This document shows positions 6,035 to 60,999 of a stretch of DNA of 64,000 nucleotides, in pieces. A program made the translations under genes and the position numbers. Location of the stretch: IMG/VR virus record IMGVR_UViG_3300045988_148900, positions 64,001 to 128,000 of that record; one strand, written 5' to 3'. How positions within the stretch are numbered: the stretch's first letter is position 1; every line of letters starts with the position of its first letter. Source of the DNA: a virus. A model generated the notes under the pieces. That model had not been told where the DNA came from and ran no database searches. It saw only the letters and a list, made by a program, of their open reading frames with translations.

Positions 6035-6559
6035 CTAAGAACGCAAGTCAGCCAAGAAGTCATTAAGACCCGATAAATGATCATACTCGTCCGCCTGAAT
6101 CTCCTTAACCAGCCGCTCCGTCGTGTAGTCACCCAAATCCCGAGACAAATCAATAATCCGCTGATAATGACGAATAGCGCACTCCTCGGACTCGATATTC
6201 TGCTCCAGTATAGGAACGAGCTCCGAAACATTCTCCGGCGTGTGATACTCACACTCAGCTGTCGACTGAATATTGGCAAAGTCGAAAATGTGCGTCGGAA
6301 CATACTGAAGCTCATTCATACGATTGAGAAGCTTCACAAAATGATCATCAAGCTCATCTTTAGCTGTAGCATTGAAAAACTCCTCGATATTGGCTCGCTC
6401 CTGACCCACAAGATAAGGAGAGACGACACGATAAGCGTAAAAAGCGAGAATTTCTTCTGCCGCTGCAATTTCGAGCTCATTGCAAATAGACAGACGAGAC
6501 TCGTCGGGCAAAATATCATCTAACGAGTCGGAAATATACGAAGCAAAATCCCTGACCAT
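6035..6559 (-). CDS. bacterioferritin-like (ferritin-like di-iron) protein
   Basis: C-terminal 174 aa of track ORF 6035..6865, starting at the ATG at 6559. The helices align by eye with Bfr: AAEEILAFYAY / KDELDDH / ESEECAIRHY / EIQADEYDHL (ExxH ligand motifs). Confidence 0.65.
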   Translation of the reverse strand: MVRDFASYISDSLDDILPDESRLSICNELEIAAAEEILAFYAYRVVSPYLVGQERANIEEFFNATAKDELDDHFVKLLNRMNELQYVPTHIFDFANIQSTAECEYHTPENVSELVPILEQNIESEECAIRHYQRIIDLSRDLGDYTTERLVKEIQADEYDHLSGLNDFLADLRS

Positions 6560-6601
6560 ATTATAAAAAGATATATCCGGTAAACCCACATTGAATTTAC
6601 T

Positions 6602-6615
6602 GGATATATAATTGA
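6602..6615 (-). promoter_or_regulatory. phage promoter-like motif copy (TCAATTATATATCCAGTAAATT)
   Basis: Minus-strand copy 42 nt upstream of the ATG at 6559 and just after the stop of gene 6630..7430. Confidence 0.4.
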
Positions 6616-6629
6616 TTGTCCCATGCAAG

Positions 6630-7430
6630 CTACAGGTCGGCAAACTCGTCGAAATCCGACACACCACTCGACGCAGGAGTAGAACTAACAGACTCCGCAA
6701 CACCCGGAATCGACGAATCGAAGCCATCAATAACAGGAGGTTCCGGTAGAGTAATACCAGCCGGAGCAGGCTCCAAATAATCAGCAGGCTCATCAGTAGC
6801 CTTAGGCTCAATAGCATCCTGACGAGGAGCAACCGTCTTGCCTTTAGGCTTACGAACCTTCTCATCCGGAACCGCAGTAGTCGACGTGCCTACAACATCG
6901 GCAGGCTGCACAGCCGAGAATTCATCATAAGAAACATGATCCTCCGAATCAGCGGAACCAGCAGGAGCGTCGAAGCCATTCTCCGAACCAAACTCACGCT
7001 CAATAATAGCTACGAAACGATCCTTCTCCTCACGAGTCTTGAGACTCGAGAAAAGAGCAAGCAACCGACGATCCTCAGGAGAGAACGTGTCCTCAGGGAA
7101 CAACGACTTGCCCTGAGCAATCTTAGCCTCCAACTTCACAACCTCAAGAACGCGCTTCATGAGAATGTCGTACTCAACAGAACACTCCACACGAGTAAGC
7201 GTAGGCAACTCCTCAACAAGAAGAGTGTTGTAACGCTCATCCAAAGCACGCATCAAAGACATGCTCTCCTCAGCCATACTATGCATCTTCTGCAACGCAG
7301 AACAAGCCATAGTAGAGACCCCAAGCTGAACCGCCCGAAGCGCAACTCCCTGAGCCTGCTCGGACTCCATACCAAGACGTACCAACTGCTCCAAGTTCAT
7401 AACAGGAGCCAAAGACTTATTATCCTCCAT
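6630..7430 (-). CDS. hypothetical protein
   Basis: 266 aa, ATG verified. Helical N-half and acidic Pro-rich C-half. Tightly packed between the sigma-like gene and the ferritin-like gene. Confidence 0.65.
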   Translation of the reverse strand: MEDNKSLAPVMNLEQLVRLGMESEQAQGVALRAVQLGVSTMACSALQKMHSMAEESMSLMRALDERYNTLLVEELPTLTRVECSVEYDILMKRVLEVVKLEAKIAQGKSLFPEDTFSPEDRRLLALFSSLKTREEKDRFVAIIEREFGSENGFDAPAGSADSEDHVSYDEFSAVQPADVVGTSTTAVPDEKVRKPKGKTVAPRQDAIEPKATDEPADYLEPAPAGITLPEPPVIDGFDSSIPGVAESVSSTPASSGVSDFDEFADL

Positions 7431-7439
7431 GAAAAAAAA

Positions 7440-8000
7440 CTAAATATTATTGCAAAAATCTACCATCATATCCAAAACAGCCTCCGTAGCCTCCAACTCC
7501 GACTGTCGCTTATGAAGACCACGCTGGCAAAACACAAGCAACGACGGCACTAAACGCCGCGGAACATCAATACGTGAGAAACCAGCATCGCCAGAAAGAT
7601 AAGGAAGCAAATCGGAAAGCTCCGACGGTACAATCTCCGGAACCTTACCCTTCGACGGCGAAACAGACTCAAGCCTATCTTCACGGTTCAATCTACGTAA
7701 CAAATTGCCAGCCTCATTGCGAATCATCGTATAAAGATAATTATACGGTGACATCGACTTATCGAAACGATCGTGACGCTCCATAATAGTCATCAAAGCC
7801 TGACTACGCAAATCGTCAAAGTCCTGATAATACTTGCCAAAGTGAGTATTCAAAACAATACTGATAACCTTGTGAATCTCGTCAAGCTCCCGAGACGTAA
7901 CCTCAGAAACAGGATGAAGATAAAACTGAAGAAGTATCTTCTTATCTATCGCAACACGAGCGGTAGAAGAACTGACAAGTATCTCTGACGAATCACACAT
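7440..8000 (-). CDS. sigma-70 region-2-like protein (gp55-like size and architecture)
   Basis: 186 aa. DDLRSQALMTIMERHDRFDKSMSPYNYLYTMIRNEAGNLLRR follows the sigma-70 region 2 pattern. No recognisable region-4 HTH. Confidence 0.55.
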   Translation of the reverse strand: MCDSSEILVSSSTARVAIDKKILLQFYLHPVSEVTSRELDEIHKVISIVLNTHFGKYYQDFDDLRSQALMTIMERHDRFDKSMSPYNYLYTMIRNEAGNLLRRLNREDRLESVSPSKGKVPEIVPSELSDLLPYLSGDAGFSRIDVPRRLVPSLLVFCQRGLHKRQSELEATEAVLDMMVDFCNNI

Positions 8001-8245: not shown

Positions 8246-8271
8246 AGGTGATTATATACAATTCTACACTG
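8246..8271. repeat. terminal inverted repeat, tnpB 3' side (copy A)
   Basis: AGGTGATTATATACAATTCTACACTG. Includes the tnpB stop codon and is identical to the copy B repeat at 50837-50862. Confidence 0.8.
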
Positions 8272-9442
8272 CACATATTGGCGTTTCATCGACTTCGTAA
8301 CCTCCGTCTCCACGCCCATCGAACCGTCCCACCGACGGCAAAAACATCGCTAAACCCTCTCTCAAAATGTTGCTGGCGGCATTTAAGTCTCGGTCGTGGA
8401 CCGTACCACATTGTGGACACGCCCAAGTCCTATTGCCTAACGTAAGACCGTCGTTCTTGTAGCCGCAACACCCACAGGTCTTGCTACTCGGGAAGAAACG
8501 GTCGATCTTTAAAACCGTCTTACCCAACCAACGCGCCTTATATTCCAAGACACGAACGAACTCAAACCAACATACACTCTGGATGGATTTAGCTAATCTA
8601 TGGTTACCCATCATGCCCTTAACATTCAAGTCCTCGATAAAAATGGCTTGGTTCTCACCTAAAATACCGTTGACTGCATGATGGATAAAGTTATGAATTA
8701 AATTACGTTTCTTAGCATATAGTTTATTGATTTTTAATCTTATCTCCGCACGGCGACGACTGCCTTTCTGTCGTCTTGCTTCTATTTTCTGCAAGCGGGA
8801 TATCCGACGATCGATGACGTCCGCGAAACGCGGATTAGGTATCTTGCGACCGTCGGAGGTAACCACAAAGTCCTTCAAACCCAAGTCCAGCCCGACACAC
8901 TTGGACTGGCTTGTGATAGGCGTGGGTTTAAGCTCAGGAACACCCGTCTCGACAAGGCAACTCACCCAAAAGAGTCCGCAGCCGTCGCAACTTACCGTGA
9001 CGTTACGTAACTGACCCGCAAACCGACGATCCTGCTTATAGCGTACTAAACCAATCTTCGATAGTTTGATGTGACTACTTTCCTGATCGACACCACAATG
9101 GGTGGACGGAAAACGACATGATAGCTTGCTCCGATGCTTCGACTTAAACCTTGGAAAACCCTGATGCGTCCGGAAAAACATCCGGTAAGCACTATACATA
9201 TCTCGAACCGACTGAACCAAACAAACCGCAGGAACGTCATACAACCATGCGTACTCGGACTTCAGGCCCGTCATCAAGTTAATACATTCGAACTCCGACA
9301 AGGACGTCTTATCTGTCTTGTAAGCCTTAATCTTAATATCAAGCGTAGCATTATAAACAAACCGACAACAACCGAACGTCTGACGCAACATTGCCTGCTG
9401 CGTCTTGTTCGGATAAAGCCGATATTTATAAGCACGCTTCAT
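8264..9442 (-). CDS. tnpB: TnpB RNA-guided nuclease family protein
   Basis: 392 aa. RuvC triad contexts GLDLGLKD / FIEDLNV / HDRDLNAA, and zinc finger CGCCGY...CPQCG. ATG verified. Confidence 0.9.
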   Translation of the reverse strand: MKRAYKYRLYPNKTQQAMLRQTFGCCRFVYNATLDIKIKAYKTDKTSLSEFECINLMTGLKSEYAWLYDVPAVCLVQSVRDMYSAYRMFFRTHQGFPRFKSKHRSKLSCRFPSTHCGVDQESSHIKLSKIGLVRYKQDRRFAGQLRNVTVSCDGCGLFWVSCLVETGVPELKPTPITSQSKCVGLDLGLKDFVVTSDGRKIPNPRFADVIDRRISRLQKIEARRQKGSRRRAEIRLKINKLYAKKRNLIHNFIHHAVNGILGENQAIFIEDLNVKGMMGNHRLAKSIQSVCWFEFVRVLEYKARWLGKTVLKIDRFFPSSKTCGCCGYKNDGLTLGNRTWACPQCGTVHDRDLNAASNILREGLAMFLPSVGRFDGRGDGGYEVDETPICAV

Positions 9443-9701: not shown

Positions 9702-10724
9702 CTACCTATTTCCAGACCGCGTGCTCACAGTACGCTCTATTAACGACCTAAGCAAAACTTCAACACCTACCTCCGACCCCAAAGCCTGCTGAGCCAAAGG
9801 AGAAAAGAAGAACCCAAACAGAGTCTTACCCAAACCTGCCTTCTGAAGCCGAAACTCAACAGAACCCTCATCAGTAGTAGCGTAAATATTACGCAACAAC
9901 AAACCAACGGACATCCGAACATCTATAGTCGGATACAACAGCAACTCCGAAAGAAGAGACGACGGATCTGTACCCCCAGACTTCGAAAAGCAAGCAACAA
10001 TGAAATCACGGAACTTGAAGTAAGAACTATCCAAAGCACGCGGACCCGCAAGCTCATAGAACTGAAGAAGCTGAAGAGCATTACGCATATGACCCTCCGA
10101 CTTCATAGCCAAAATGTGAAGCTCGTCCGCAGACAACCGAGTACCACGACTCGCAGCGATCTTAGCAACATGAGCCTCAACCAACGGAAGAGGAATAGTA
10201 CTAATGTCGATATTCACACACCGAGACTTCAAAGTAGGCGAAATATCCTCCGTACCACAAAACATGAAAATAGTATTAGGAACACCCTCCTCAACCGTCT
10301 TCAAAAGAGCATCACTACTACTACGAGAAATGGCCTGAACCTCGTCCAAGACCACAACACGACGCCCTTCCGGCACTACCATAAGCTGCTCCTTAAGACG
10401 TCTAATCCCCTCAATATTGCCCACAACCGTACCATCAAGCTCCCAGTAAAGACTCGAGTTGGACGCAGAAGCCTCCTGACACCCAGCACACGCATTACAA
10501 ACGTCGTCCTTGTGCTTAAACTCCGTACAATTCATAGCTCTGCCAAAAATACGAGCTATGCTTGACTTCCCTGAACCGAAGCTTCCCTTCAAAAACAAGG
10601 CCCGGGCTGCAATCCCGTCAGCATGGGCTATACGCTTCAGAGTCGTAACAGCCAAATCCTGACCAACCATCTCGCCAAAGGTCTTCGGCCTATACAAATT
10701 AGCTAAATTCTGATCCTGCGCCAT
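9702..10724 (-). CDS. clamp-loader ATPase (DnaX/RFC-like)
   Basis: YRPKTFGEMVGQD, Walker A GSFGSGKSS, Zn module CTEF..C.AC.GC, Walker B VVVLDEV, SRC motif LKSRC. Confidence 0.8.
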   Translation of the reverse strand: MAQDQNLANLYRPKTFGEMVGQDLAVTTLKRIAHADGIAARALFLKGSFGSGKSSIARIFGRAMNCTEFKHKDDVCNACAGCQEASASNSSLYWELDGTVVGNIEGIRRLKEQLMVVPEGRRVVVLDEVQAISRSSSDALLKTVEEGVPNTIFMFCGTEDISPTLKSRCVNIDISTIPLPLVEAHVAKIAASRGTRLSADELHILAMKSEGHMRNALQLLQFYELAGPRALDSSYFKFRDFIVACFSKSGGTDPSSLLSELLLYPTIDVRMSVGLLLRNIYATTDEGSVEFRLQKAGLGKTLFGFFFSPLAQQALGSEVGVEVLLRSLIERTVSTRSGNR

Positions 10725-11094: not shown

Positions 11095-11862
11095 CTACTC
11101 CCTACCTAAACACTTGAATAACTTCTCAATATGAGATACAGCTGCACCCTCCTTAGAGTACATAAGATTACGCTTCTCGTTGGACCAAATAAGCTCCCAA
11201 CGCCCCCAATCCGGCTCCGTATACTCTGAAAGATAAACATCACAATGATTATCGTCTACCTGGGAACAGGCCCAACGGTAAAAAGCAGCATGATCAAAAG
11301 CATTAGACTTCCCATCGCCTGTCTTGTATCCTGAAACGCTGCGGTAAGGAATATCATTGTAAACCATTGATTCTGAGGGTATTACGAGATCTCTGTAGTC
11401 TCCGCTGAACAACTTGACGTCACGCATGCCGCTATGATACTTCATGGTGAACTGACGATAGATAGATGCACGGTTCCGGTCCTGATACATCTTCCCTGCG
11501 TAGCCCTGAAAGTAAGTGGCCTTAAAGGAGCAGCAGAAGCCAACATAAGCTATAAACCAAGACTGATACTCGTCCTTATGAGCCCGGATGTAAAGGTAAT
11601 CCTCCTTAGAAACCTCCTCCGGAAAGGTGTCTGCAGGAAAGCACCACTCACAGGTGCGCTCATCGAAGTAAACCTTCTCCTGAAGGTATTTGAACATGTC
11701 AACAATGACATGATTATACTCATTGCCCCAACGAGGACCACTCATGGCGGTAACAACATTGAAACCACCACCAAAGGCATCCACAAATAACTGATCCGGC
11801 GAACGCCTACGAGACTCCAAGATTGGAATTATCTGCTCAAGGATGCCTCCCTTGCTACCCAT
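11095..11862 (-). CDS. N6-adenine DNA methyltransferase (Dam/D12 class)
   Basis: FVDAFGGGFNV (FxGxG SAM motif) and YNDIPY (DPPY-type motif IV). The track start at 11871 is GTG and the ATG is at 11862. Confidence 0.75.
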   Translation of the reverse strand: MGSKGGILEQIIPILESRRRSPDQLFVDAFGGGFNVVTAMSGPRWGNEYNHVIVDMFKYLQEKVYFDERTCEWCFPADTFPEEVSKEDYLYIRAHKDEYQSWFIAYVGFCCSFKATYFQGYAGKMYQDRNRASIYRQFTMKYHSGMRDVKLFSGDYRDLVIPSESMVYNDIPYRSVSGYKTGDGKSNAFDHAAFYRWACSQVDDNHCDVYLSEYTEPDWGRWELIWSNEKRNLMYSKEGAAVSHIEKLFKCLGRE

Positions 11863-11894
11863 GTAAACCACTGTAAATCTGTGTTTTATAAAGT

Positions 11895-12494
11895 TTAACT
11901 GAACCTGAACTTCAAATTAGACAAAAACTGCTCCGTAAGATCATTAAAAGGCATGTCTGGAAACATTAACGTAACACGCTTCCCATAACTGCTGTAAAAC
12001 GACTGAACCTTAGAACCAGCACGAAGACCCGTGTTCGTCTCCTTGCCAAAGTCATTATCACAACAATAAGAAATATCATCAAACAAAGACAATACAATAT
12101 GAGTAGCTTTTCGATTGCCTGCCAAGGACGTAAAACCTAAGACATTACGATCCGGAAAACACAGCTTAGCAGACAGGTAATCAGAAACACCCTCAGTGAT
12201 AATAACAGAGCGATCCTGTAGATTTAATAACGAAAGACCTACAAGACCAAAATGATCTATAACCGTATCCTTAACCTTTGAACCAACGGAGCGCGTATAC
12301 CAAAAAGATACCCGCGCTCCAGATGGATTAGGAAGCCGCTCGATCACATCTACAGAAACACTCTCCGTAATAAGATTATTACGAACCTCAACACCTCCGC
12401 GAACCCCGCCCCACAACTCCAGCAACTGAAGCCACTGGTAGTTCTTAAGACGAAAGCCATCCGGAAGACGAATGTGATCAAGCGGCAAAAGCAT
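11895..12494 (-). CDS. Toprim-domain protein (DnaG-like)
   Basis: VIITEGVSDYLS ... YCCDNDFGKETNTG gives the Toprim E...DxD signature. Confidence 0.6.
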   Translation of the reverse strand: MLLPLDHIRLPDGFRLKNYQWLQLLELWGGVRGGVEVRNNLITESVSVDVIERLPNPSGARVSFWYTRSVGSKVKDTVIDHFGLVGLSLLNLQDRSVIITEGVSDYLSAKLCFPDRNVLGFTSLAGNRKATHIVLSLFDDISYCCDNDFGKETNTGLRAGSKVQSFYSSYGKRVTLMFPDMPFNDLTEQFLSNLKFRFS

Positions 12495-13175: not shown

Positions 13176-16028
13176 CTACCGCATTGACGCTAAAAAAGAC
13201 TTGCTAAGACACTCCTCGCACAACGTGAACCCTTTGCCGGAACCCACATCAAGCACTGCAGGACGGCCACAGCACTTACAAGAATGAAACTCACGAGAAC
13301 GCAAGGTAGTAACGCAATCAACTGCAGTACCCCTAAAAAGCTTGTTCGGGTGAACACGCTTCGGACGTAAAACCGCCTGAATGTAATACCACGGATTACA
13401 ACGCACCGGAATGACTAAGACACCCTTAGATCCTCCGCGACCGTCTGAGACGACCAATGGGGCGGAAAGCGGCCCAGACCTCAACATATATGGCTTATAC
13501 TTGTCTCCCTCCAAATGTAAGGTAGAACCGTCATACTTAGGAAGCACAAAAGACCAAACGTCCATAGGCAAATCCGACCGGAAAGAAAACAGATTCAAAT
13601 CATCCAACGAAATTGGAATATCAGAAACATCATCTGAAACCCCAAGAACCTCAAAGGACACACTACGGGAATTTAACCCCTGAAAGAACTGACTAACAGC
13701 CGAAACATCATTATAAGACCGAAACTCCAAGTCCACAAGCTGGCTCCCGCCAACATCCCAATGACTATCCGGATAACTCTGACCATAAAGAGAATTAACC
13801 TGCGACACCCGAATAAAAGAATCACAAAGACCCTGATTACACCTTAAAAGACTTGACGCAAAAAGATGCGACGTGGCGCGCGGATTTAGAATTCTGCCAT
13901 AGGACGTCCTCTTTAATCTGAAACGCAGAATATGGGCCGCCTCTGGCTTCTTGTGGGCCTTTATATCGTCGGCGGAGATGGTCGAAGGCAAAGAACGACG
14001 AGACGCAAGACCCGAACGCCCGCAGGCATGGCAATCTGAAACACGAACACCCGGAGAACCTGAAAGAAAACCATCAGATCCTAACGAGACATCCGCAAAC
14101 TGAAAGACCGGATTATTCGAAACCAAAAAAGACGAACAAACACCCCTACACGAATCGGTGCGCAAACACCGAGGCATGCTGAAATCCGGAAAACCTGACG
14201 ACGAAAGACCCTTACGCTCCTGATACCGACGAACGCCATCCAAGCTCGTATGAACCCAATGCAACAACGATATGTAACCATTAAATGAACGCTTATCGAA
14301 GAAGCCTGACTCATCACTACCAATCATAGTACGAAGAGACTTAAAGAAAGGCAAGTCGCGTAAAGACCGCAGCTTATACAAGTTCGAACCCGACGCAACC
14401 TCCCGATGAAGCAACGGAGTCAGACGACGACCAAAGGACACCAAAGCCTGCTCAAGCAGCGTGCTATAACGATAACCATTAACCTCAAAGCGAACACCAA
14501 GCTCGTCCGTGAACCGAGAATACCACTCAGTCGAAATCCACTGACCGTCGTCAAAACTAAGACGAGCAGCGCGCTTCTCAATACACTCCAAAGGCGTCAA
14601 CGGATACTGAACCAAAGGCGTAGCCTTAAACCGTATAGGTAACTTGCCCCCACGACTTGCAGCATACGTAAGCCAACGCTTCGTGAAGCCATAAAGCCAC
14701 TGCCAGTCCGACTCCTCCTCGTAACCCGAAAGAACAAGACCAATCTTAATATCCAAGCAACCCCTATGAATCATGAAGCGCATATAAGACTCCAAAGCCT
14801 CCTCCGAAAGACCCTTATTATAAAGACTGTTCCATATCCGAGGACTAACACCCTCAATAGGAGCCGTGCCGCGACGAAAACCTAAGGCGAAAAGAAGCTC
14901 CATAGCATCTTCATCCTTCCCAAGCTCCTCCATGCGCATATTGCTGAACGTAACCGTAGGAAACACATCCTGAACCTTAGCTACCGTGCCCTTCCAATCC
15001 GTCAAATAGTTGAGATTATAGGCGGCGAGCTTAACCGTATCCGACGCACTCCGAAGCTTAGCAACACGCGCCATAGAAACAATGGTATCCTGAGACTCCT
15101 CCTGTAAGCCACCCGCAAGATGACCCTCAGCACAGAAAGAACAGTTGCCCGCAAAACCACAACCCTCGGCGGCCGAAACCATAGCCAAATTGGTATTACC
15201 ACCATTGCCGCGAATATAACCCGCAGCAGCCCCAAGCAAACCCTCAGGCTTGGACGAACCCAGACAGAAAGTAGCATGATCTGGAGCATCTGCACGAACA
15301 CGACATGTAGACACAATCCTATTACCGCACCACTCAAAAGAATAAGACTGCGGCTGGTAAAAACAAAAAGAACCTTGACTATACCATAAGTAATTCAAAT
15401 ATTGATCCACCGTAGTAGTAGACCGTGGAAAAGAACCCATAGCGTCAAAAAGAAGCTTCTCGTCCCACGTCTGACCCAAATACATGAAGTCTAAGTAACT
15501 ATAACGACCGTCACCAAGAGACCCAAACAAAACATCAGCATAAACAACAGACGCACCTCCCGCATAAATAAGAGGAACATCGGTACGACCATTCCGCTCC
15601 GTGTACGACAACGGAATAGGCTTATCGCACCTGCTGAACGTAGCAAGCATCCACGGAACAACCGGAATCTCATAAAGACACGAAATACTAAAACCAACAA
15701 TGTCAAAATGAGACGGATCGAGATGAGACGAAATACCAATAGCATAAGGAACCTGCTCCTTATCATACCAGCGTATATCATCCCTATGCGGTAGAAACGC
15801 AAAGTCTATAAATACGCCCGGACAGCAAGTCTTAACCCAGTCGAGCAAGACCGTAGGAGTCATCGAATGAGTCTTATCAAAAGACGACGACGGAAAGACT
15901 ATAAGCAACTTCAGATTAGAAGCAGCATAAGCGTCCATAGACATCAGACCTGCATCCGGGTTGTAAAACTCACACCCGTCATGCAAGACTGACTTGTAAC
16001 TCTCTATAAACCGCTCGCTACGTGTCAC
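13176..16028 (-). CDS. large radical-SAM-like protein (TIGR03960-type layout) with C-terminal extension
   Basis: 950 aa. AEGCGFAGNCSFCAEG gives a CX5CX2C cluster. FDIVGFSISCLYE..PLIYAGGASV lies upstream. GTAPIEGVSPRIWNSLYNKGLSEE / IKIGLVLSGYEEESDW / FKATPLVQYPLTP lie downstream. C-terminal CKCCG..CEEC ribbon. GTG start overlaps the upstream TGA. Confidence 0.7.
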   Translation of the reverse strand: MTRSERFIESYKSVLHDGCEFYNPDAGLMSMDAYAASNLKLLIVFPSSSFDKTHSMTPTVLLDWVKTCCPGVFIDFAFLPHRDDIRWYDKEQVPYAIGISSHLDPSHFDIVGFSISCLYEIPVVPWMLATFSRCDKPIPLSYTERNGRTDVPLIYAGGASVVYADVLFGSLGDGRYSYLDFMYLGQTWDEKLLFDAMGSFPRSTTTVDQYLNYLWYSQGSFCFYQPQSYSFEWCGNRIVSTCRVRADAPDHATFCLGSSKPEGLLGAAAGYIRGNGGNTNLAMVSAAEGCGFAGNCSFCAEGHLAGGLQEESQDTIVSMARVAKLRSASDTVKLAAYNLNYLTDWKGTVAKVQDVFPTVTFSNMRMEELGKDEDAMELLFALGFRRGTAPIEGVSPRIWNSLYNKGLSEEALESYMRFMIHRGCLDIKIGLVLSGYEEESDWQWLYGFTKRWLTYAASRGGKLPIRFKATPLVQYPLTPLECIEKRAARLSFDDGQWISTEWYSRFTDELGVRFEVNGYRYSTLLEQALVSFGRRLTPLLHREVASGSNLYKLRSLRDLPFFKSLRTMIGSDESGFFDKRSFNGYISLLHWVHTSLDGVRRYQERKGLSSSGFPDFSMPRCLRTDSCRGVCSSFLVSNNPVFQFADVSLGSDGFLSGSPGVRVSDCHACGRSGLASRRSLPSTISADDIKAHKKPEAAHILRFRLKRTSYGRILNPRATSHLFASSLLRCNQGLCDSFIRVSQVNSLYGQSYPDSHWDVGGSQLVDLEFRSYNDVSAVSQFFQGLNSRSVSFEVLGVSDDVSDIPISLDDLNLFSFRSDLPMDVWSFVLPKYDGSTLHLEGDKYKPYMLRSGPLSAPLVVSDGRGGSKGVLVIPVRCNPWYYIQAVLRPKRVHPNKLFRGTAVDCVTTLRSREFHSCKCCGRPAVLDVGSGKGFTLCEECLSKSFLASMR

Positions 16029-16402
16029 CGCTTATTGAAGTGATAAGATAAACCATAGAGCCCATTACATGGACTATCATCCAAAGTGTAGCCATAATCC
16101 CACATGGTGTTAATCTGAGCCTGCGTAGGATAACCAACACACATAGGATGACGATAAGAGGCATCAACCTGAACAGAAATATAACCTCGCTGAGTCATGT
16201 AATCATCCGGATGAGGAACAAAGGGAAAACGCTGCTGAGCAATGCATCTATGAAGAGACATTATGCTAACCGCTATGAGCTCCGAGGTATCACCATCCTC
16301 CGGCCTGTAGTACAGCACATTGCCATCCGGAGCAACCCAAAACTCGTTACGAATCCGACGCTCCGCCTCTAATAACCACTCGTCCTCAACACCCGTACCC
16401 AT
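16025..16402 (-). CDS. hypothetical protein
   Basis: 125 aa, ATG verified. Its stop overlaps the next gene's start (GTGA). Confidence 0.6.
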   Translation of the reverse strand: MGTGVEDEWLLEAERRIRNEFWVAPDGNVLYYRPEDGDTSELIAVSIMSLHRCIAQQRFPFVPHPDDYMTQRGYISVQVDASYRHPMCVGYPTQAQINTMWDYGYTLDDSPCNGLYGLSYHFNKR

Positions 16403-22542: not shown

Positions 22543-23757
22543 CTACTGCTGCATGAGAACCGACCGAACGCAGTAAACAGCGTCGCCCAAATCTACAACA
22601 AGACTACTCGACGAACAGCTGTACTTCGTGTCTGCAGTGCTCTTCGACAGAACACCCAACAGAACCGGAATGGAGACAACAATAGCTCCGCCCGAACTCT
22701 GACCCAACTTGTATGCAAACGTATACTTCGCGTCCTCGCCATCCTTACGATGGGCCGTGACAACAAAGTCATTTGGATTGAAATCTACACGAACCGTGTC
22801 CGTAAAGTAATCCAAAGAACCGATAACCGTAAGAAGCTGACGGAAGGCACCATCCTCAACAAGAACAGACTGGTCATACAAAAAAGCACTCTTAAAAAGA
22901 GGACTCATGAAACGACCAACAGCCTCACCCGACGTGTAAGCAAAACGAAGATAATGAGAACCACCGAAATTCATCGACATGTGATCATCCGAAAAACAAG
23001 CCGAAGTGTCGCCGTCATTCGTCGCCGCAAGGGTGGACACCACGTCTACTAAAATGCGTGACAAAATACAGTCGTGGGACCCAAAGAAAGACTTCATGCG
23101 ACCCAAGATGGACCCGATGTTGATATATGAGTACCCATCACGCGTAATCAGCTGACGCTCCGACGTACGCTCCGAGTAGGCAAGCAACGACGAAAACGTC
23201 AGGAGATTCCGACGAATATGATCCCCGTCCAGCTTATCGGTCATCTGCTCGTACTGAAAATCATAAACAGACGCGTCGAAAGGCTGAGTCTCAACATAAA
23301 CCAAGTTGCCCGAAAAATAAGCATACAACCCCGGCTGACCAGAACCAGACGACGCATCCTGAGACACCAAGACAAGATGAGCCACAACGTTCCCGAAAAG
23401 CTTCTTCAGGTGAACAATAGGAATGGAAAAACCACGAAGAGTCTTGCCAGACGAATTCACAAAACGATACACAAGCTGATAAGCCGAATTGTCGTACTTG
23501 ACATAAACCCAATCCGCCGTAGCGTAAAGGTAAACATTCTTCCCAGACAACGACGCAGCGAGCTTCGACAGACAATCCAAAACATGAAGCATCGGCGTAG
23601 CCTCAAGCTTCGGAAGCGAAACATAACTCTCGTAAGGAAGACCTGACGTAACCTCCGAAATGCCGGAAATCACCTGATCAACACCATCGCCATCCAAACC
23701 ATCCAAAGGTGACATAGGATCGAAACCCGACGAACTCAAATCCTCAACATTGCTCAT
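22543..23757 (-). CDS. possible DnaN-like sliding clamp
   Basis: 404 aa. The C-terminal third (VRVDFNPNDFVVTAHRKDGEDAKYTFAYKLGQSSGGAIVVSIPVLLGVLSKS...VVDLGDAVYCVRSVLMQQ) parallels E. coli DnaN domain III by eye. Clamp-loader genes are present nearby. Confidence 0.4.
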   Translation of the reverse strand: MSNVEDLSSSGFDPMSPLDGLDGDGVDQVISGISEVTSGLPYESYVSLPKLEATPMLHVLDCLSKLAASLSGKNVYLYATADWVYVKYDNSAYQLVYRFVNSSGKTLRGFSIPIVHLKKLFGNVVAHLVLVSQDASSGSGQPGLYAYFSGNLVYVETQPFDASVYDFQYEQMTDKLDGDHIRRNLLTFSSLLAYSERTSERQLITRDGYSYINIGSILGRMKSFFGSHDCILSRILVDVVSTLAATNDGDTSACFSDDHMSMNFGGSHYLRFAYTSGEAVGRFMSPLFKSAFLYDQSVLVEDGAFRQLLTVIGSLDYFTDTVRVDFNPNDFVVTAHRKDGEDAKYTFAYKLGQSSGGAIVVSIPVLLGVLSKSTADTKYSCSSSSLVVDLGDAVYCVRSVLMQQ

Positions 23758-23779: not shown

Positions 23780-24688
23780 CTACTTGCCCTTCTTCTGAAC
23801 GGACGCAGCACCAAGAATACCATCACAGTAACTAACAACATCGTCTGGAGCAACCATACGCAAAGCGTCCATAAAACTCAAGTCCTCACCTCCGCTGCTA
23901 TTACGAAGCAACTCCAAAAGAGTATCGTAACTCATAATAGACGGATCGGAAGAGGTAACCGACTCCGTCTTAAAACCCGAAACCGAAAAAATATCCGACG
24001 CGGAACGTGCCACAGAGACCTCCAAAAGACTATGCCGTATCGAGTCGTTCTCTACTTCAACGTAAACAGCCTTCGGAACCCTATCCGACGTGGAAACACG
24101 ACGGTTCCGAAACAAACTACCCGGACGAACAACAGTGATACGATCATTAACAACATAGTCGGCATACTCGACATGATCATGACCAAGTAAGACCAAAGCA
24201 GGAGACGAACAACCAACAAGGTCGGAAACCGAAACCGTAAAACGACCATCCTTCTGCTCCAAGAAACCGTGATAAACCAAAAGCTGAGGCTTATCTCGTG
24301 TCTCCAAAGGAAGCTGGCCGCCAACATAGCAGTCCGGATAAGACACAACCGTGTTATCCATAAAGCCTACAACCCCCGACGCGCCCAGCGTGTACAAGGC
24401 ACAACGCTTAGCGTTCTCGTCCGCCCTATATAACATATCATGATTACCCCACACACATAGGGCGGTATAACGGCACCCGGACAGAACATCCATAACACCA
24501 TTCACCGCCTCATAAGGAACCGTAGCCTTATCGAATATATCACCACCAAGAAGAAGTGTAGCATCTAACTCGTTGGCCTTAGCAACACACCACCGAAGCT
24601 TCTGCAACACGTCATCCAAAGGATTGCCCGTCCGAACAGCACAAACCGTGTTAATATGTAAATCCGTGACAAAAAGAAACCTGCTCAT
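23780..24688 (-). CDS. sbcD: SbcD/Mre11-type nuclease (metallophosphoesterase)
   Basis: FVTDLH, GGDIFD, WGNHD and LLGHDH phosphoesterase motifs. Confidence 0.85.
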   Translation of the reverse strand: MSRFLFVTDLHINTVCAVRTGNPLDDVLQKLRWCVAKANELDATLLLGGDIFDKATVPYEAVNGVMDVLSGCRYTALCVWGNHDMLYRADENAKRCALYTLGASGVVGFMDNTVVSYPDCYVGGQLPLETRDKPQLLVYHGFLEQKDGRFTVSVSDLVGCSSPALVLLGHDHVEYADYVVNDRITVVRPGSLFRNRRVSTSDRVPKAVYVEVENDSIRHSLLEVSVARSASDIFSVSGFKTESVTSSDPSIMSYDTLLELLRNSSGGEDLSFMDALRMVAPDDVVSYCDGILGAASVQKKGK

Positions 24689-26796: not shown

Positions 26797-26816
26797 CCCA
26801 CGGCTAAAGCCGCGGG
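26797..26816 (-). repeat. IS right-end subterminal hairpin
   Basis: CCCGCGGC TTTA GCCGTGGG on the tnpB sense strand. It straddles the tnpB stop codon. Confidence 0.7.
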
Positions 26817-27934
26817 ATTCTTGACTCAGACATGGCCGCCACCGAGGTGGGCTTACTACCACTAATCAACGCGTCCATGCCCGAACGCCGAATGTTTAAC
26901 GCTGCGTTGAGATCACGATCATGATGCGTTCCGCACTGCGGACAAAGCCATGAACGGTCAACCAACCGAAGCTCTTTATTAACGTACCCGCATCCACTGC
27001 ACAGCTTGCTACTCGCAAACCACTTATCGACATGCACAACGTTCGTGTTGTACTTAGTAGCTACGAACTCCAAGCGCGACACGAATGATGCGTGGCTGAG
27101 ATCCGAAACCTTACGGCCCCATAAGCGACGCATACCATCAAGGATCAACGTCTCCAAGCAGATCGTAGAATAACACTGACAAAGATCATGCGCTAAGCGC
27201 CACTGATAATCGTCACGATGGTTGCTGATCCCACGATAGAGCCTGCTGAGTTCAAGACGCCGACGGCGGTGGTTATTTGAGCCTTTGACGGATTGGCTCA
27301 ACCGCCGATGCGCCTTACGGATATCACGAAGCGTCTGCTTAAAGAATTGAGGGTTCTCGTAACTGCGCCCGTCGGATAACGTCAAATACGTCTTCAAGCC
27401 AAAGTCAATGCCTACAACCGCACCATCATGTGTCGTGTTGCTGGATTCTACCTTAGCGTCGGTTACGACGTACAACCAAAAGTCGCCGCACGGAGCACGC
27501 TTAACGCGAACCGTCTTTATCGCACCATCAAAATTACGGGATTTATGAAATTTATAAGTCTTCTTAAGTCTGTTGATTGTGAAGCAATTGCCGTCTATCT
27601 TATACCCATAATGCAGCTTATAGGCAAAGGATTGAAAATCCGCGGCACATCGGAACTTAGGCGGCCGCTTGGCAAGCTTCTTGAAGAAACGTTGGTACGC
27701 AGCAGCAAGTCGCTGCAACACCTCAATGCTATTGTGTGAGTACAATAGATGCCGCTTGATGCGCTTTGTAAAATGCTTCTGCATGTCAACCGTTGAAACG
27801 TACTTGCCATACATACGGTAGTATCTACGTTGAAGCGCAAGTGCGTGGTTCCATACAAACGCACACTCCCGAAGCATCCGGTCCAACCATACGGTCCGAT
27901 GTGTCTTGTAGAGTTTGTATTTGTATGTCAACAT
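26804..27934 (-). CDS. tnpB: TnpB (IS605 OrfB family)
   Basis: 376 aa. GIDFGLKT / ...LETLILDG... / HHDRDLNAALNI, and zinc finger CSGCGY..CPQCG. A TATATTTG box lies at 27954-27961. Confidence 0.9.
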   Translation of the reverse strand: MLTYKYKLYKTHRTVWLDRMLRECAFVWNHALALQRRYYRMYGKYVSTVDMQKHFTKRIKRHLLYSHNSIEVLQRLAAAYQRFFKKLAKRPPKFRCAADFQSFAYKLHYGYKIDGNCFTINRLKKTYKFHKSRNFDGAIKTVRVKRAPCGDFWLYVVTDAKVESSNTTHDGAVVGIDFGLKTYLTLSDGRSYENPQFFKQTLRDIRKAHRRLSQSVKGSNNHRRRRLELSRLYRGISNHRDDYQWRLAHDLCQCYSTICLETLILDGMRRLWGRKVSDLSHASFVSRLEFVATKYNTNVVHVDKWFASSKLCSGCGYVNKELRLVDRSWLCPQCGTHHDRDLNAALNIRRSGMDALISGSKPTSVAAMSESRIPRL

Positions 27935-57256: not shown

Positions 57257-60200
57257 TTATATTATATTATTAGAATAGACTGATTTAAGAAATACAGAAG
57301 CTTTTGAATAACTCTCAGGAGTATTGGTTAAAACTATACCATTGGCATTCTCAACAACGGCAGCCGTAGAATCATCCAAAATCGTACCCAGTAAAGAATA
57401 ATCTACCTGTACGAAGTCTAAACCTATATTAGATAAGACCGTATTTTTTTGAGTATCAGTAAGATTCTGACCTTCACTATACCTTACAACATCAGTAGCA
57501 TAACCAGCCGAAATCAAAGAAAGTTTTTTGCTGGTATGAGATAAAGTCAGAACAAACCAAACTCTTGCGTTAAACTCGCTGACAAAAGTAGTAGTAACAG
57601 TATTAGAACTACCCACAAAATACAAAGATGGCGCATTATTTCCATCCGGGACGTTCTCTAAAAACACACCTTTAGCGGTCAGTAACTTATTATAAGTACT
57701 ATCATCCAACGTAGAGCCAATCAGTGAATAGTCTACGTGCACCAAAGGAAGCCCGATATTAGACAGGGCCATGTCTTTTTGAGTATTGGTTAGATTCTGA
57801 TTCAAATTACTTACTACTAACTTTGATGTCTGAACTAAGCTAAGTGTCTTATTCGGAATGTTCAAAACAAAATAATTTATATCCTGAAAATTCTCGATAG
57901 AAGAAAAAGTAATAGTACTGACTAATTTTGACCCAACAGTAAATACTACTGAGCGTATGTAATCATCAGGAGTATTAGTCAAGATAATCCCTTTGGCATT
58001 TACAAGCTGAGACAGTCTATCGTCGGATAAAGTAGTCGCTAATTCAGAGTAATCTACAATGACAAAATCAAGACCTATATTAGACAAAGCCGTATCCTGC
58101 TGCGATGTGGTTAAATTCTGAACCTCGGCGTATCTTACCGAACCTCCATAAGTTAAACCGGAACTTAGACCTGACAATAATTTTGTAGACTTGTTAAGTG
58201 CGAATATAGAATACGTATTTCCCGTAACAAAGCTTACGAAGATACAAGACCCAGATGTATTATTGCCTTTAATGAAAACCGTCGGATTCCTGTAATCGGA
58301 TGGTGTATCAACTAAAACAATACCTCGGGCATTATCAACAACTGCAAGCATCTCGTCCGACAGTGTAGTACCCAAAAGAGAGTACGGAATTCTAACAAGA
58401 TCAATACCTATGTTGCCCAAGGCTTTATTCTTATTATCATCAGAAACACTACTCTGATCACGATCAAAAGAAACCGCACTCGGATCGTATAAGTATGCGA
58501 AACTCGAAGTAATAACCCCGGTCGCCTCATTGACATTCAAAGCCGTACAGAAACTGTTGCTGAACTGTCCGTAAAAACGACGGCTACCACCTGACGTGAT
58601 AGAAAAATTATAGAGTAAGCCTGTCTCCTGCACCAATAAGGCGGTGGCCGAAAGACGTGCGGCTTTCTCATCGTCCGAAACAGCATCCGAGGAACCAATA
58701 GCAGACTCCGAGATCACATGAACCTTCCAACCTAAATTCTCGAACGCCTGTGATTGTTGTGCACCCGACAAAGAAGTAAGACGATCAAACCTGAGGGCTC
58801 CTGGATCATTTAAAAACAAATTACCATTAAAAACAAATGTTTTCGACGCCTTCTTATAGGAACAATATAAAGCCAAAGTATTAGACCACAGGCTATAAAA
58901 AATAGGCTCGGGTACACTCGCAAAATTGGAAGATGTGAAAATATGATTATCTGCATTATATATACCCACGCCAGTATTAGTACCATCAACAGTCAGTAAA
59001 ACAGCAGCTCCTGCCAGTAACTTAGCATCCTCCTCATCCGTGAGAACGACAGACGTTGCACCCTCCGGGAATTTTAATACAACCAAGTCTAAACCTAAGT
59101 TTGACCAAGCCTGCTCCTGCTGCGCACTCGTCAAAGCTGGATTTTGGACGGTAAAATGCAAGCTCAAAGCATCTTGAAAATTGTAGCTATTAAGAGCAGA
59201 CACCACGCCCGTAGATCGTGTAATAGATAGTATCGCAATAATAGAATTAGACACAGAACGAGTGAAAGTAATCCTATTCGAATCTAAAGTCCCCAATAAA
59301 AACAAATCCCCCGTATCAGTAAACAGAAGAACCTTAGAAGCAGCTACCTGTTCTATTTCCTCCGCCGATAAAGTAGACCCTAAAAAGCTACTATCCGTAA
59401 CATAGACCTTCATGCCTAAGTTGGCAAACGCCTGTGCCTGTTCAGTAGCAGACAGAGTCTGCATTTTTATAGATACCGCATTAGGATCTATGAAACTTGC
59501 CGAAGTAAGAAAACGAAATAGTTTAGTGGACTTAGTGTAAATACACTGTAAAATATATCTGTTGTTTCTTACTGCCCAAAAACTTACTTGATCCCCTCCT
59601 TGATAGTCACTAAAATATATTTTAGTAAGTACCTCTTTGCCCGCAGCTACCGTGCCACGCAAGATAACTCCTTTACACGACAACAATCTATCCTCCTGAT
59701 CATCGGTAAGTGTCGCCTGACCATTGACAAGATCGATAATCATCAGGTCAGCACCTATATTTTCCAATGCTTGATTCTGAGCCGAAAGACTCAAAGACTG
59801 GGCAATATCCGTCCTAACCACCTTCGAGGCAAAATCAGCAGACGTGACATGATCATTGATGCGCGCCTGAAGATCAACAGAAAGACAATCCCAGTCAATG
59901 GAATTCTTAAGAACCGTGGCATGGATGACATTATTCTCGTCTATAGAAATCTGAATCCGATCGCCAATAGAACCAACATATTCCTTGACAAAGGCACTAA
60001 CCGGAATACTCGTGGTAGTACCATCAGCATTATCAAACTCAATGCTCTCGGTCTCTGCGTTATAACGTAAGGCCAGCTGCTCGATAGGCAAGTCAATCTC
60101 TACAGACGCACCAGCAAGAGTCGTGAACGTAATCTTATAAGACGACGAATCGTAAGCCGGAAGACCTACACAAGTATTAAGCAACTCGCGAATGTCAGCA

Positions 60201-60979
60201 TGAGAAGTAGACGACGTATTATGAATAGATATGCTCTCCGTAACAGACTCCAAAGACGCCTTCTTACTCAACTCCTCCGTAACAGACGCCTGTGACATGA
60301 TAAGATTAGAACTATTACCAGTCGTATCTACAACAGCATCAACACCAACCTTCTGGAGAAGCTCCTCAGTAACGGCATTCTGAGACAGGACAGCAGTAGT
60401 ACTGTTACCCGGACCCTGAACAATCTCAAAAATATCAACCTGATCTGCAATATACTGCTTGAGGTTATCCGTAGTGACAAAACCACTCAGAAAATCTATA
60501 ACCTCAGGAAGCGTGTCGATGCTCAAATCAGGAACTGCCGTAAACGAGTCAATAGTATAATCAAGATTCTGTGACAGCTCCGTGGAATTGAACGTCTTAT
60601 ACTTCATCTCCCCAATAGCCCCAACCTGAGAAATAAAGAGTAAGTCCTTCTCGTAAAGATAAGACACCGTAAGCAAGATAGGATAATATCCGGCAGCCCG
60701 CAAGGACAAAACCAAAATGCTATTCTCCTGCCCAAGAACGACTGACAAATAAAAAGCATCTGAAACCCCCGAAGCCATAGGCTCCGAGTCTACAACACCA
60801 TCTACGCTCCGATAAACATCATACATGACAGAACTGCCAAACGACTGACATATACGAAGTAATACCGACTTCTCCTGAAAGGACAATGAAAGTGATTGGG
60901 CTGTAGAAGCAACTAAACCCGCAACGGCACTCATCTGAGCAACAGGACTCTCCAAGGGACGATAAGTTACAAGAGACAT
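57257..60979 (-). CDS. modular tail fibre protein
   Basis: 1240 aa from the ATG at 60979. Eight tandem modules each begin L(T/S)xxQ(K/Q)xxAxxN(I/L)G (e.g. LTDTQKNTVLSNIGLDF). The N-terminal region has (S/T)Q(N/A)(A/S)VTEEL repeats. Confidence 0.8.
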   Translation of the reverse strand: MSLVTYRPLESPVAQMSAVAGLVASTAQSLSLSFQEKSVLLRICQSFGSSVMYDVYRSVDGVVDSEPMASGVSDAFYLSVVLGQENSILVLSLRAAGYYPILLTVSYLYEKDLLFISQVGAIGEMKYKTFNSTELSQNLDYTIDSFTAVPDLSIDTLPEVIDFLSGFVTTDNLKQYIADQVDIFEIVQGPGNSTTAVLSQNAVTEELLQKVGVDAVVDTTGNSSNLIMSQASVTEELSKKASLESVTESISIHNTSSTSHADIRELLNTCVGLPAYDSSSYKITFTTLAGASVEIDLPIEQLALRYNAETESIEFDNADGTTTSIPVSAFVKEYVGSIGDRIQISIDENNVIHATVLKNSIDWDCLSVDLQARINDHVTSADFASKVVRTDIAQSLSLSAQNQALENIGADLMIIDLVNGQATLTDDQEDRLLSCKGVILRGTVAAGKEVLTKIYFSDYQGGDQVSFWAVRNNRYILQCIYTKSTKLFRFLTSASFIDPNAVSIKMQTLSATEQAQAFANLGMKVYVTDSSFLGSTLSAEEIEQVAASKVLLFTDTGDLFLLGTLDSNRITFTRSVSNSIIAILSITRSTGVVSALNSYNFQDALSLHFTVQNPALTSAQQEQAWSNLGLDLVVLKFPEGATSVVLTDEEDAKLLAGAAVLLTVDGTNTGVGIYNADNHIFTSSNFASVPEPIFYSLWSNTLALYCSYKKASKTFVFNGNLFLNDPGALRFDRLTSLSGAQQSQAFENLGWKVHVISESAIGSSDAVSDDEKAARLSATALLVQETGLLYNFSITSGGSRRFYGQFSNSFCTALNVNEATGVITSSFAYLYDPSAVSFDRDQSSVSDDNKNKALGNIGIDLVRIPYSLLGTTLSDEMLAVVDNARGIVLVDTPSDYRNPTVFIKGNNTSGSCIFVSFVTGNTYSIFALNKSTKLLSGLSSGLTYGGSVRYAEVQNLTTSQQDTALSNIGLDFVIVDYSELATTLSDDRLSQLVNAKGIILTNTPDDYIRSVVFTVGSKLVSTITFSSIENFQDINYFVLNIPNKTLSLVQTSKLVVSNLNQNLTNTQKDMALSNIGLPLVHVDYSLIGSTLDDSTYNKLLTAKGVFLENVPDGNNAPSLYFVGSSNTVTTTFVSEFNARVWFVLTLSHTSKKLSLISAGYATDVVRYSEGQNLTDTQKNTVLSNIGLDFVQVDYSLLGTILDDSTAAVVENANGIVLTNTPESYSKASVFLKSVYSNNII

Positions 60980-60999
60980 GCGCAACACAATTATTTAAC

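Follow-up and report, generated by a model that had tools for sequence, protein, structure and literature searches.

We analyzed the gene for a predicted radical S-adenosylmethionine (SAM) enzyme in a 64,000-nt stretch of viral DNA (positions 64,001 to 128,000 of IMG/VR record IMGVR_UViG_3300045988_148900), referred to here as the window. The gene occupies 13176..16028 on the minus strand, with its stop codon at 13176-13178, and codes for a 950-aa protein whose residue numbers are used throughout. We assigned it to a TIGR03960/TIGR03936-like phage clade using the list of open reading frames (ORFs), its homologues, and an AlphaFold2 (AF2) model. Only a 1243-aa ORF (57257..60988) is longer, which makes the radical SAM gene the second largest in the window. 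The sequence around the start reads cGGTGAc, and the GTG start codon overlaps the stop codon of an upstream 125-aa ORF (16025-16402) in a GTGA tetranucleotide (16025..16028, minus strand), indicating translational coupling. The position, size rank, and overlap agree with an earlier sequence-only reading of the window, which had described the product as a radical SAM-like protein with an atypical CX5CX2C cluster. The strings quoted in that reading (GTAPIEG, IKIGLVLSGYEEESDW, and FKATPLVQYPLTP) are all present in the protein, as are the loop G-C290-GFAGN-C296-SF-C299 and a C-terminal C917-x2-C920...C937-x2-C940 motif. Full-length homologues were found at 98, 59, 44, 43, and 34% identity, with a large group at the 34% level. 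The MTRS... start is common to homologues, and an identical protein is present on contigs up to 134.6 kb. Together with the 667 matching protein clusters described below, these comparisons argue that the ORF is not a chance reading frame.

The predicted [4Fe-4S] cluster loop, C290-GFAGN-C296-SF-C299 (15132..15161, minus strand), was identified by residue invariance and by profile alignment with hhalign. C290, C296, F298, and C299 were invariant in 85 diverse relatives. Loss of the three cysteines in close homologues, which the sequence-only reading had named as one observation that would speak against it, was not seen. The spacer between the first two cysteines is more variable. Among 388 fetched relatives, it was three residues long in 137, four in 18, five in 67, six in 13, and seven and eight in one each. 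CX3 spacing is concentrated in the branch nearest to the cellular proteins, and CX5 spacing is typical of a 900-950-aa clade that includes the window protein. Because the three cysteines never change and the spacing of the first two ranges from 3 to 8 residues, we interpret CX5CX2C as a clade-specific lengthening of a Gly/Ser-rich loop that forms the same kind of site as the canonical motif. The atypical spacing is therefore real, and the loop is two residues longer than the canonical one. The CX5CX2C loop of HcgA is reported to bind a functional [4Fe-4S] cluster (PMC10100467), and spacings from 4 to 11 have been catalogued across the radical SAM superfamily (PMC9477430).

Profile searches with the window protein alone were less informative. 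Radical_SAM (PF04055) scored 14.5 bits (E 0.041; cut-off 29.5), and Radical_SAM_N2 (PF19864) scored 22.8 bits (E 6.7e-5; cut-off 29). The NCBIfam search returned no TIGR03960 match at E<=10 (family cut-off, 462.3 bits), and its sole methylthiotransferase match, TIGR01578, was negligible (E 0.28). No TRAM match appeared in the Pfam search, and the PF10105 (DUF2344) profile matched neither the window protein nor its close clade. Single-sequence searches of PHROGs and PDB sequences gave no match, nor did tblastn against INPHARED (50,697 deposited phage records). A HMMER comparison with the TIGR03960, Pfam, and DUF2344 profiles had been suggested as a check on the sequence-only reading, and for the protein alone it produced no radical SAM match above threshold, an outcome that the reading itself had named as counting against it. 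Taken by themselves, the sub-threshold Pfam scores and the lack of NCBIfam, PHROG, and PDB sequence matches would fit a protein that is not a radical SAM enzyme at all, with the cysteine motif and weak profile matches arising by coincidence.

Because single-sequence profile searches failed their thresholds, we tested homology using deeper methods. A profile built from the close phage clade (A1), run against a set of 1.84 billion representative proteins, matched 667 clusters (50% identity), and for 242 of these the E-value was below 1e-30; the larger count probably also includes some cellular TIGR03960 proteins. Sub-threshold PF19864 matches were present in 5/7 close relatives of the window protein. 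Seven distant family members pass the PF04055 cut-off with 35-53 bits, and distant members also pass the PF19864 cut-off with 35-76 bits. One member of an 845-aa phage branch (P0283) matches PF10105. Phage relatives match TIGR03960 at E 1e-15 to 1e-34 (54-120 bits), far under the 462-bit cut-off. We took cellular TIGR03960 and TIGR03936 reference proteins from GTDB genomes, where TIGR03960 scores were 690-724 bits. One of them, the 849-aa fusion L020, scored 690 bits for TIGR03960 and 142 bits for TIGR03936.

Aligning the A1 profile to L020 alone with hhalign gave 98.1% probability (E 1.2e-13) over residues 45-551. The cluster loops were in register (GCGFAGNCSFC / GC--LRGCRFC), with a two-residue insertion in the phage loop. 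Residues 580-950 aligned to cellular fusions at 93.6% (E 2e-7), a match that spans the Cys-rich linker and only the first half of TIGR03936. A profile of the 85-sequence family (A2) aligned to four cellular fusions at 100% (E 2e-55), matching residues 1-904 to residues 5-846 of 849. These alignments confirm, at the level of profile comparison, that the window protein is a very divergent, collinear relative of bacterial TIGR03960+TIGR03936 (DUF2344) fusions. Thus, the TIGR03960-type layout that had been proposed stands as collinear homology, supported by hhalign probabilities of 98.1-100% and by the Pfam matches of relatives; it does not stand as a curated TIGR03960 score, and by that score we do not file the window protein as a family member. 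The relatives that pass cut-offs, the hhalign probabilities, the invariant cysteine triad, and the structural matches described next effectively refute a coincidental resemblance, to which we give virtually no credence.

We built an AF2 model of the window protein from the 85-sequence alignment. It had a predicted local distance difference test score (pLDDT) of 94.5 and a predicted template modeling score (pTM) of 0.94; a model from an earlier 7-sequence alignment had reached a pLDDT of 52. The best Foldseek matches in the PDB were MgmA (9ccb, E 6.6e-9), MiaB (7mjz, E 1.8e-7), MtaB (E 6.1e-6), and AprD4, with further matches to the radical SAM enzymes LipA, BioB, MqnE, HydE, and SPL. Structure prediction therefore supports the radical SAM assignment in the sequence-only reading. 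A search of BFVD gave no full-length structural match. The core (residues ~280-560; 14349..15191, minus strand), which is delimited by invariant columns, Foldseek, and hhalign, is modeled as a partial (beta/alpha)6 TIM-barrel radical SAM fold. It is preceded by an acidic (isoelectric point [pI] 4.9) Rossmann-like domain of the Radical_SAM_N2/B12-binding-like type (residues ~38-250; 15279..15917, minus strand). PF19864 matches in relatives and Foldseek both indicate this domain, in line with the B12-like segment that had been proposed to precede the cluster loop. The matches to MgmA, MiaB, and MtaB span both the Rossmann-like domain and the core.

The N-terminal fold raises the possibility of a cobalamin-dependent (class B) radical SAM methyltransferase, or a relative of one, that acts on a small molecule or protein such as a nucleotide precursor or a replisome side chain. 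MgmA, the best structural match, is a B12-dependent enzyme that methylates a protein glutamine. The NCBI name of TIGR03960 is 'B12-binding radical SAM protein', and a few cellular relatives also carry the B12-binding domain PF02310. The PF02310 profile had no match in the window protein or its clade, cobalamin binding is not readable from the sequence, and a small-molecule substrate would leave the C-terminal half of the protein, with its basic pseudouridine-synthase-like domain and zinc ribbon, unexplained. We consider a class B enzyme of this kind improbable.

The C-terminal half begins with a Cys-rich linker (C621, C631, C666, and C669; 14022..14168, minus strand) whose cysteines are 85-87% conserved in the 85 relatives. 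This stretch aligns to a DC...C..C..C motif of the cellular fusions, and the four cysteines form a probable second metal site that would hold zinc or an auxiliary Fe-S cluster. A basic (pI 8.8) TIGR03936/DUF2344-like domain follows at residues ~696-904 (13317..13943, minus strand); hhalign and Foldseek suggest that it has a pseudouridine-synthase-like fold. Pfam places DUF2344 in the PseudoU_synth clan (PMC7955657). Foldseek also returned the pseudouridine synthases TruA (1vs3, 8q70) and PUS3 (9enf) lower in the list (E 5e-3 to 1e-2, TM-scores of ~0.47-0.49), and in the model these matches would fit the C-terminal domain. G761 is the sole near-invariant residue in this domain, which probably serves as a binding module and not as a second catalyst. 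The protein ends in a zinc ribbon (C917, C920, C937, and C940) and a terminal helix, both read from the sequence (residues 905-950; 13179..13316, minus strand). The ribbon cysteines are near-invariant in one of our alignments (A3), and some members of the phage family have a ribbon while others do not. None of the four cellular fusions we compared has one, and the hhalign match stops at residue 904. Thus, the long C-terminal extension that had been described as ending in a zinc ribbon consists of a TIGR03936/DUF2344-like domain plus the ribbon. The C-terminal modules have pI values of 8.7-9.5, as opposed to 4.9 for the N-terminal domain.

We compared core residues between the phage and cellular families. 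R365, G393, K405, and D441 are invariant in the family, and N338, E392, R397, K428, and E437 are near-invariant. Ten cellular TIGR03960 proteins have identical residues at R145, G158, G185, R365, E392, R397, K405, K428, E437, and D441. Because most family-invariant core residues are identical in cellular TIGR03960, the two groups likely share the same basic chemistry. E120, E301, N338, G383, G435, and Q527 are substitutions specific to the phage clade. The 85 relatives contain no invariant or near-invariant cysteine before residue 290.

The window protein deviates from a near-invariant position only at W399 (codon TGG; 14832..14834, minus strand). This residue lies in the motif E-G-x-S-x-R-[IL]-R-N, where 81/85 relatives and 10/10 cellular TIGR03960 proteins have Arg. 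Trp was present in 15/15 proteins sampled from the 90%-identity cluster, which rules out an error and shows that the lineage has fixed the substitution. W399 and the unusually low curated profile scores would be expected of a decaying or repurposed copy that is catalytically impaired in this lineage and kept for a structural or binding role. Such a copy would have to be reconciled with a full-length ORF that occurs at 97-100% identity on many contigs with its cysteine triad and other invariant residues intact, and with relatives at 59%, 44%, and 43% identity that keep the architecture. Since only a single near-invariant position deviates, we regard this explanation as very improbable.

Many relatives carry inteins inside the catalytic core, and the window copy does not. 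Insertions were found at 289/290, 298/299 (the commonest site), ~336-339, 366/367, ~380-389, 426-434, and 469/470 in window numbering, every one of them within the catalytic core. Individual relatives have up to three insertions and reach lengths of 2148 aa; five of the intein-bearing homologues were P0007, P0006, P0089, P0135, and P0137. In a group of 1154-1170-aa proteins, a 218-aa insertion sits exactly between F298 and C299, so that the commonest mini-intein directly precedes the third cluster cysteine, which is its +1 residue. In a group of 1506-1586-aa proteins, this intein is followed immediately by a second one of the LAGLIDADG type, and no extein residue separates the two. The 298/299 mini-intein often has a non-nucleophilic residue at its first position. 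Its block B His is followed two residues later by Trp, block F contains a Cys, and the sequence ends in T-H-Q/N, a signature that is reportedly that of class 3 inteins. The only match of the 218-aa insertion to a solved intein by sequence was insignificant (gp41-1, E 0.22), and we identify the insertion as a putative intein from its motifs. One published study describes inteins as favoring conserved sites of replisome-network proteins (PMC4760082).

Related phages also have long orthologues of the clamp-loader gene that lies downstream of the radical SAM gene. These are 660-760 aa, compared with 340 aa in the window (L002, 7276-9399; L001, 14472-16463; and L004-L008), and at least one carries intein Pfam matches (PF14890, Hint_2). 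Therefore, both members of the radical SAM/clamp-loader gene pair have been invaded by inteins in this phage group. One 1277-aa relative (P0355) has a reverse-transcriptase domain (PF00078) added to its radical SAM domains, which may reflect a gene call that ran on through the ORF of a group II intron.

With C290, C296, C299, F298, R365, K405, and D441 invariant, HcgA as a precedent for the loop, and inteins in the core at no fewer than six sites, we conclude with high confidence from these sequence features that the gene encodes an active radical SAM enzyme of the TIGR03960-TIGR03936 lineage. The phage gene would be a highly diverged descendant of the bacterial fusions. In the proposed mechanism, C290, C296, and C299 would hold a [4Fe-4S] cluster that reductively cleaves SAM to generate a 5'-deoxyadenosyl radical.

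The genomic context of the gene was examined for clues to its function. The gene belongs to a co-directional, tightly packed run that begins with an SbcD-like gene (23780-24688) and continues through several unknown ORFs, a 782-aa unknown ORF, and three small ORFs. Past the radical SAM gene are two small ORFs, a Toprim-like gene (11895-12494, minus strand), a D12/Dam-class methyltransferase-like ORF (11095..11871, minus strand), a 110-aa ORF, and a DnaX-like clamp loader (9702..10724, minus strand; PF13177, E 2.3e-19). Four or five small genes (115-aa, 102-aa, Toprim-like, Dam-like, and 110-aa) thus separate the radical SAM gene from the clamp loader, its conserved downstream partner. The Pfam match of the Dam-like ORF is slightly sub-threshold (E 5.9e-4), and its orthologue in L001 carries PF02086. 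Both the Dam-type methylase and the placement of the radical SAM gene in a replication module had been proposed from the sequence, and the Toprim-like, Dam-like, and clamp-loader genes in the same run bear this out. After the clamp loader come a TnpB insertion, a sigma factor, and ferritin-like, terminase-like, and portal genes.

Three further assignments in the window were tried and rejected. The coupled 125-aa gene upstream was considered as a conserved DUF4406 gene, which occupies the same position in L001, and comparison showed no conservation. A 404-aa ORF at 22543-23757 had no sequence support as a sliding clamp, and a clamp is not claimable for the window. The 782-aa and 1243-aa ORFs had no Pfam or PDB matches that would identify a DNA polymerase.

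The gene order is kept in relatives at 33-59% identity. Even at 21-28% identity, the radical SAM gene is followed shortly downstream by a DnaX-like clamp loader encoded on the same strand. In distant phages, where identity is only 21-24%, the radical SAM gene stops no more than ~1.8 kb short of the clamp loader or runs into its start. We observed this adjacency in seven loci (L010-L016) and in six further contexts with precomputed Pfam annotation. It was also seen in all 9/9 loci that contain the radical SAM gene among 80 IMG/VR loci that we sampled independently, using the clamp loader as anchor. In 5/6 annotated contexts, a beta sliding clamp is found 1.5-3.5 kb upstream, preceded by SbcCD and a PD-(D/E)XK nuclease. 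RecA lies further upstream in the only annotated context that reaches that far. No beta clamp, SbcCD, nuclease, or RecA was seen in the sixth context, L028. In two lineages, a gene of the uracil-DNA glycosylase (UDG) family is immediately upstream of the radical SAM gene. The other 71 of the 80 loci have heterogeneous genes upstream of the clamp loader, and we found no common replacement gene among them.

The cellular relatives have different neighbors. A fusion in Geomonas (one genome) adjoins RNase E/G, L21, L27, and Obg. An association of TIGR03960 with RNase E/G and L21-L27-Obg is part of its TIGRFAMs description, and it was seen in the one genome we checked. These neighbors are consistent with a phage enzyme that does the same job as the cellular proteins, namely radical modification of rRNA, tRNA, or another structured RNA as a way for the phage to tune translation or the processing of RNA. 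The gene would then owe its place in the replication module only to early or middle co-expression. The largely identical active-site residues of cellular TIGR03960 fit such a role, as do the RNA-handling pseudouridine-synthase-like fold and the presence of the tRNA enzymes MiaB and MtaB among the closest solved structures. On the other hand, we found no tRNA genes in the window. Adjacency to clamp-loader and beta-clamp genes at 21-28% identity is stronger than co-expression usually gives, and the clade-specific substitutions and added zinc ribbon suggest a shifted substrate. On balance, we consider RNA modification by the phage enzyme somewhat unlikely, though it is the strongest of the alternative explanations.

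Our best overall explanation, which we hold at roughly even strength, is a phage-adapted radical SAM enzyme that acts on nucleic acid in connection with replication. The basic C-terminal modules, the clan placement of DUF2344, the MiaB/MtaB-like layout, and the cellular RNase E/G-L21-L27-Obg neighbors lead us to slightly favor a nucleic-acid substrate over other kinds. In MiaB and MtaB, the C-terminal domain holds tRNA. By analogy, the basic C-terminal half of the window protein (Cys4 linker, pseudouridine-synthase-like domain, and zinc ribbon) would hold a nucleic acid and present a base or sugar to the radical. The link to replication comes from the adjacency to the clamp loader, the upstream beta clamp, SbcCD, nuclease, RecA, and UDG genes of relatives, and the co-directional run of Toprim-, Dam-, and clamp-loader genes. 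The reaction may thus be tied to genome replication, most likely through modification of phage DNA during its replication, or of a nucleotide or primer associated with that process. Replication-coupled action on DNA specifically is a tentative proposal. A stronger version, in which the enzyme is a dedicated, near-essential replication component of a large assemblage of uncultured phages, is a target of inteins in the way that replisome proteins are, and acts co-replicatively on DNA, primers, or precursors, is unlikely in our judgment. One possible form of that version is a new hypermodification of DNA bases that uses the pseudouridine-synthase-like domain as a base-handling module.

Several observations weigh against a replication-linked, nucleic-acid-modifying enzyme. 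The window protein alone falls below every curated profile threshold in Pfam and NCBIfam, and having Trp in place of a near-invariant Arg might change or reduce activity. Foldseek gave a weak TruA-like match (E 4.6e-3, TM-score of 0.49), and we identified no equivalent of the catalytic Asp of pseudouridine synthases in the C-terminal domain. The radical SAM gene is missing from 71/80 clamp-loader loci, which makes it an addition specific to certain lineages instead of a general replisome component. Co-expression can preserve gene order in phage modules even when the products are not directly coupled in function. The neighbors of the cellular gene suggest a role in RNA and ribosome biogenesis and not in DNA. 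Finally, we found no substrate or reaction in the literature for the widespread bacterial TIGR03960/TIGR03936 family.

We also examined the distribution of the family. The phage clade was seen only in metagenomes, and the close relatives of the window protein come from gut metagenomes. The 59%-identical homologue is on a contig binned with a rabbit-gut Muribaculaceae metagenome-assembled genome (L017), and one window ORF has a weak BACON domain; both suggest that the host probably belongs to the Muribaculaceae or to another group of Bacteroidales. No deposited isolate phage was found with the family apart from a single apparent exception, Microcystis phage MaAM05 (L027, MW495066.1). We rejected MaAM05 as a cultured carrier: the region holds rpsA, ispH, ispG, trpS, and mqnC, and the match looks like a cellular TIGR03960 gene in a bacterial chromosome, which makes the record doubtful. 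Comparing phages with bacteria, as the sequence-only reading had recommended, revealed many uncultured phages with the gene in a clamp-loader context and a bacterial homologue (Geomonas) beside RNase E/G.

Other features of the window were noted. GC skew ranges from -0.12 to -0.30 and AT skew from +0.13 to +0.55 across the whole window, in agreement with the extreme base-composition skew noted earlier. Cumulative GC skew reaches -6.3 over the 64 kb with no switch point, and nearly all long ORFs are on the minus strand. Three TnpB / IS605 OrfB (Cas12f-like TNB) genes of 376-392 aa are present at 8264-9442, 26804-27934, and 50855-52033, all on the minus strand; two were identified by Pfam and the third by sequence motifs and blastp matches. 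One of them lies between the clamp loader and the sigma factor, and related copies occur in L001, L007, and L017. A 243-aa ORF (28823-29554, minus strand) has a Tad3 domain (type I Thoeris inhibitor; PF25185, E 8.4e-13) and is a candidate anti-defense gene. A ferritin/rubrerythrin-like gene (PF00210, E 3.5e-15; 6035-6865, minus strand) and a sigma-70 region 2 gene (7440-8000, minus strand) lie between the replication and terminase/portal genes, and both genes are conserved in six related contigs (L002, L005-L008, and L017). A possible role of the ferritin-like product would be to provide or shield iron for the Fe-S enzyme. The 1243-aa ORF (minus strand) has no Pfam, PHROG, or PDB match; over 74% of its length it shows 48% identity to a hypothetical protein encoded by cr108_1 (MT774385.1), an uncultured phage of the human gut that we take to be crAss-like from its name. 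The other genes we tested had no match in deposited phages.

Radical SAM genes in phages are unsurprising by themselves. What stands out here is a radical SAM gene, conserved over deep divergence and laden with inteins, that lies between clamp and clamp loader. The phage clade gives a fresh approach to the bacterial family, in that the same active-site residues have been moved to a deeply conserved DNA-replication neighborhood, and the functions of both the phage and the bacterial family become experimentally approachable. If phage DNA or replication intermediates prove to be what the enzyme modifies, this would represent new phage genome chemistry with relevance to restriction and CRISPR evasion, and it would hint at the substrate of the cellular TIGR03960/TIGR03936 family. 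Were it a dedicated replication component, it would provide the first functional handle on TIGR03960/TIGR03936. Our analysis also corrects the annotation of a core gene, which comes out of standard pipelines as 'hypothetical' or under the wrong name 'YgiQ', and it documents a cluster loop of 3 to 8 residues within one family. In the literature that we searched, we found no description of this phage family and no paper that names TIGR03960, TIGR03936, or PF19864; DUF2344 was found only for its Pfam clan placement (PMC7955657).

We compared the window protein to characterized enzymes. Its C-terminal domain may resemble TruA-type pseudouridine synthases in fold, with no recognizable sequence motif of these enzymes. 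HcgA (HmdB) has the same CX5CX2C spacing, but it belongs to an unrelated HydE/BioB-like subfamily with no shared accessory domains, and the shared spacing is convergent. MgmA (class B, cobalamin-dependent) is the best structural match (TM-score of 0.58 on the target); the two differ in that identity is only ~10% and the window protein has about double the length, additional C-terminal modules, and no PF02310 match. Like MiaB, MtaB, and RimO, the window protein has three parts: a Rossmann-like N-terminal domain, a radical SAM core, and a C-terminal substrate-binding domain. Unlike these enzymes, its family lacks a conserved three-Cys auxiliary cluster in the N-terminal domain, and a pseudouridine-synthase-like domain takes the place of TRAM.

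The closest known systems are the cellular TIGR03960-TIGR03936 fusions (L020 and Geomonas P0377), which have the same domain order and are collinear with the window protein from end to end. Both have a PF19864-like N-terminal domain, a cysteine triad with a C-x-F-C ending, shared core residues, a Cys-rich linker, and an alignable first half of the DUF2344 domain. The window protein differs in its low identity (~21-25%), its CX5CX2C loop (CX3CX2C in the cellular proteins), a 34-residue insertion in the Cys linker, the zinc ribbon, and clade-specific substitutions. Inteins are frequent in its phage relatives. The clearest difference is genomic context: the phage clade is associated with beta clamp and clamp-loader genes, whereas the cellular fusion is found with RNase E/G, L21, L27, and Obg.

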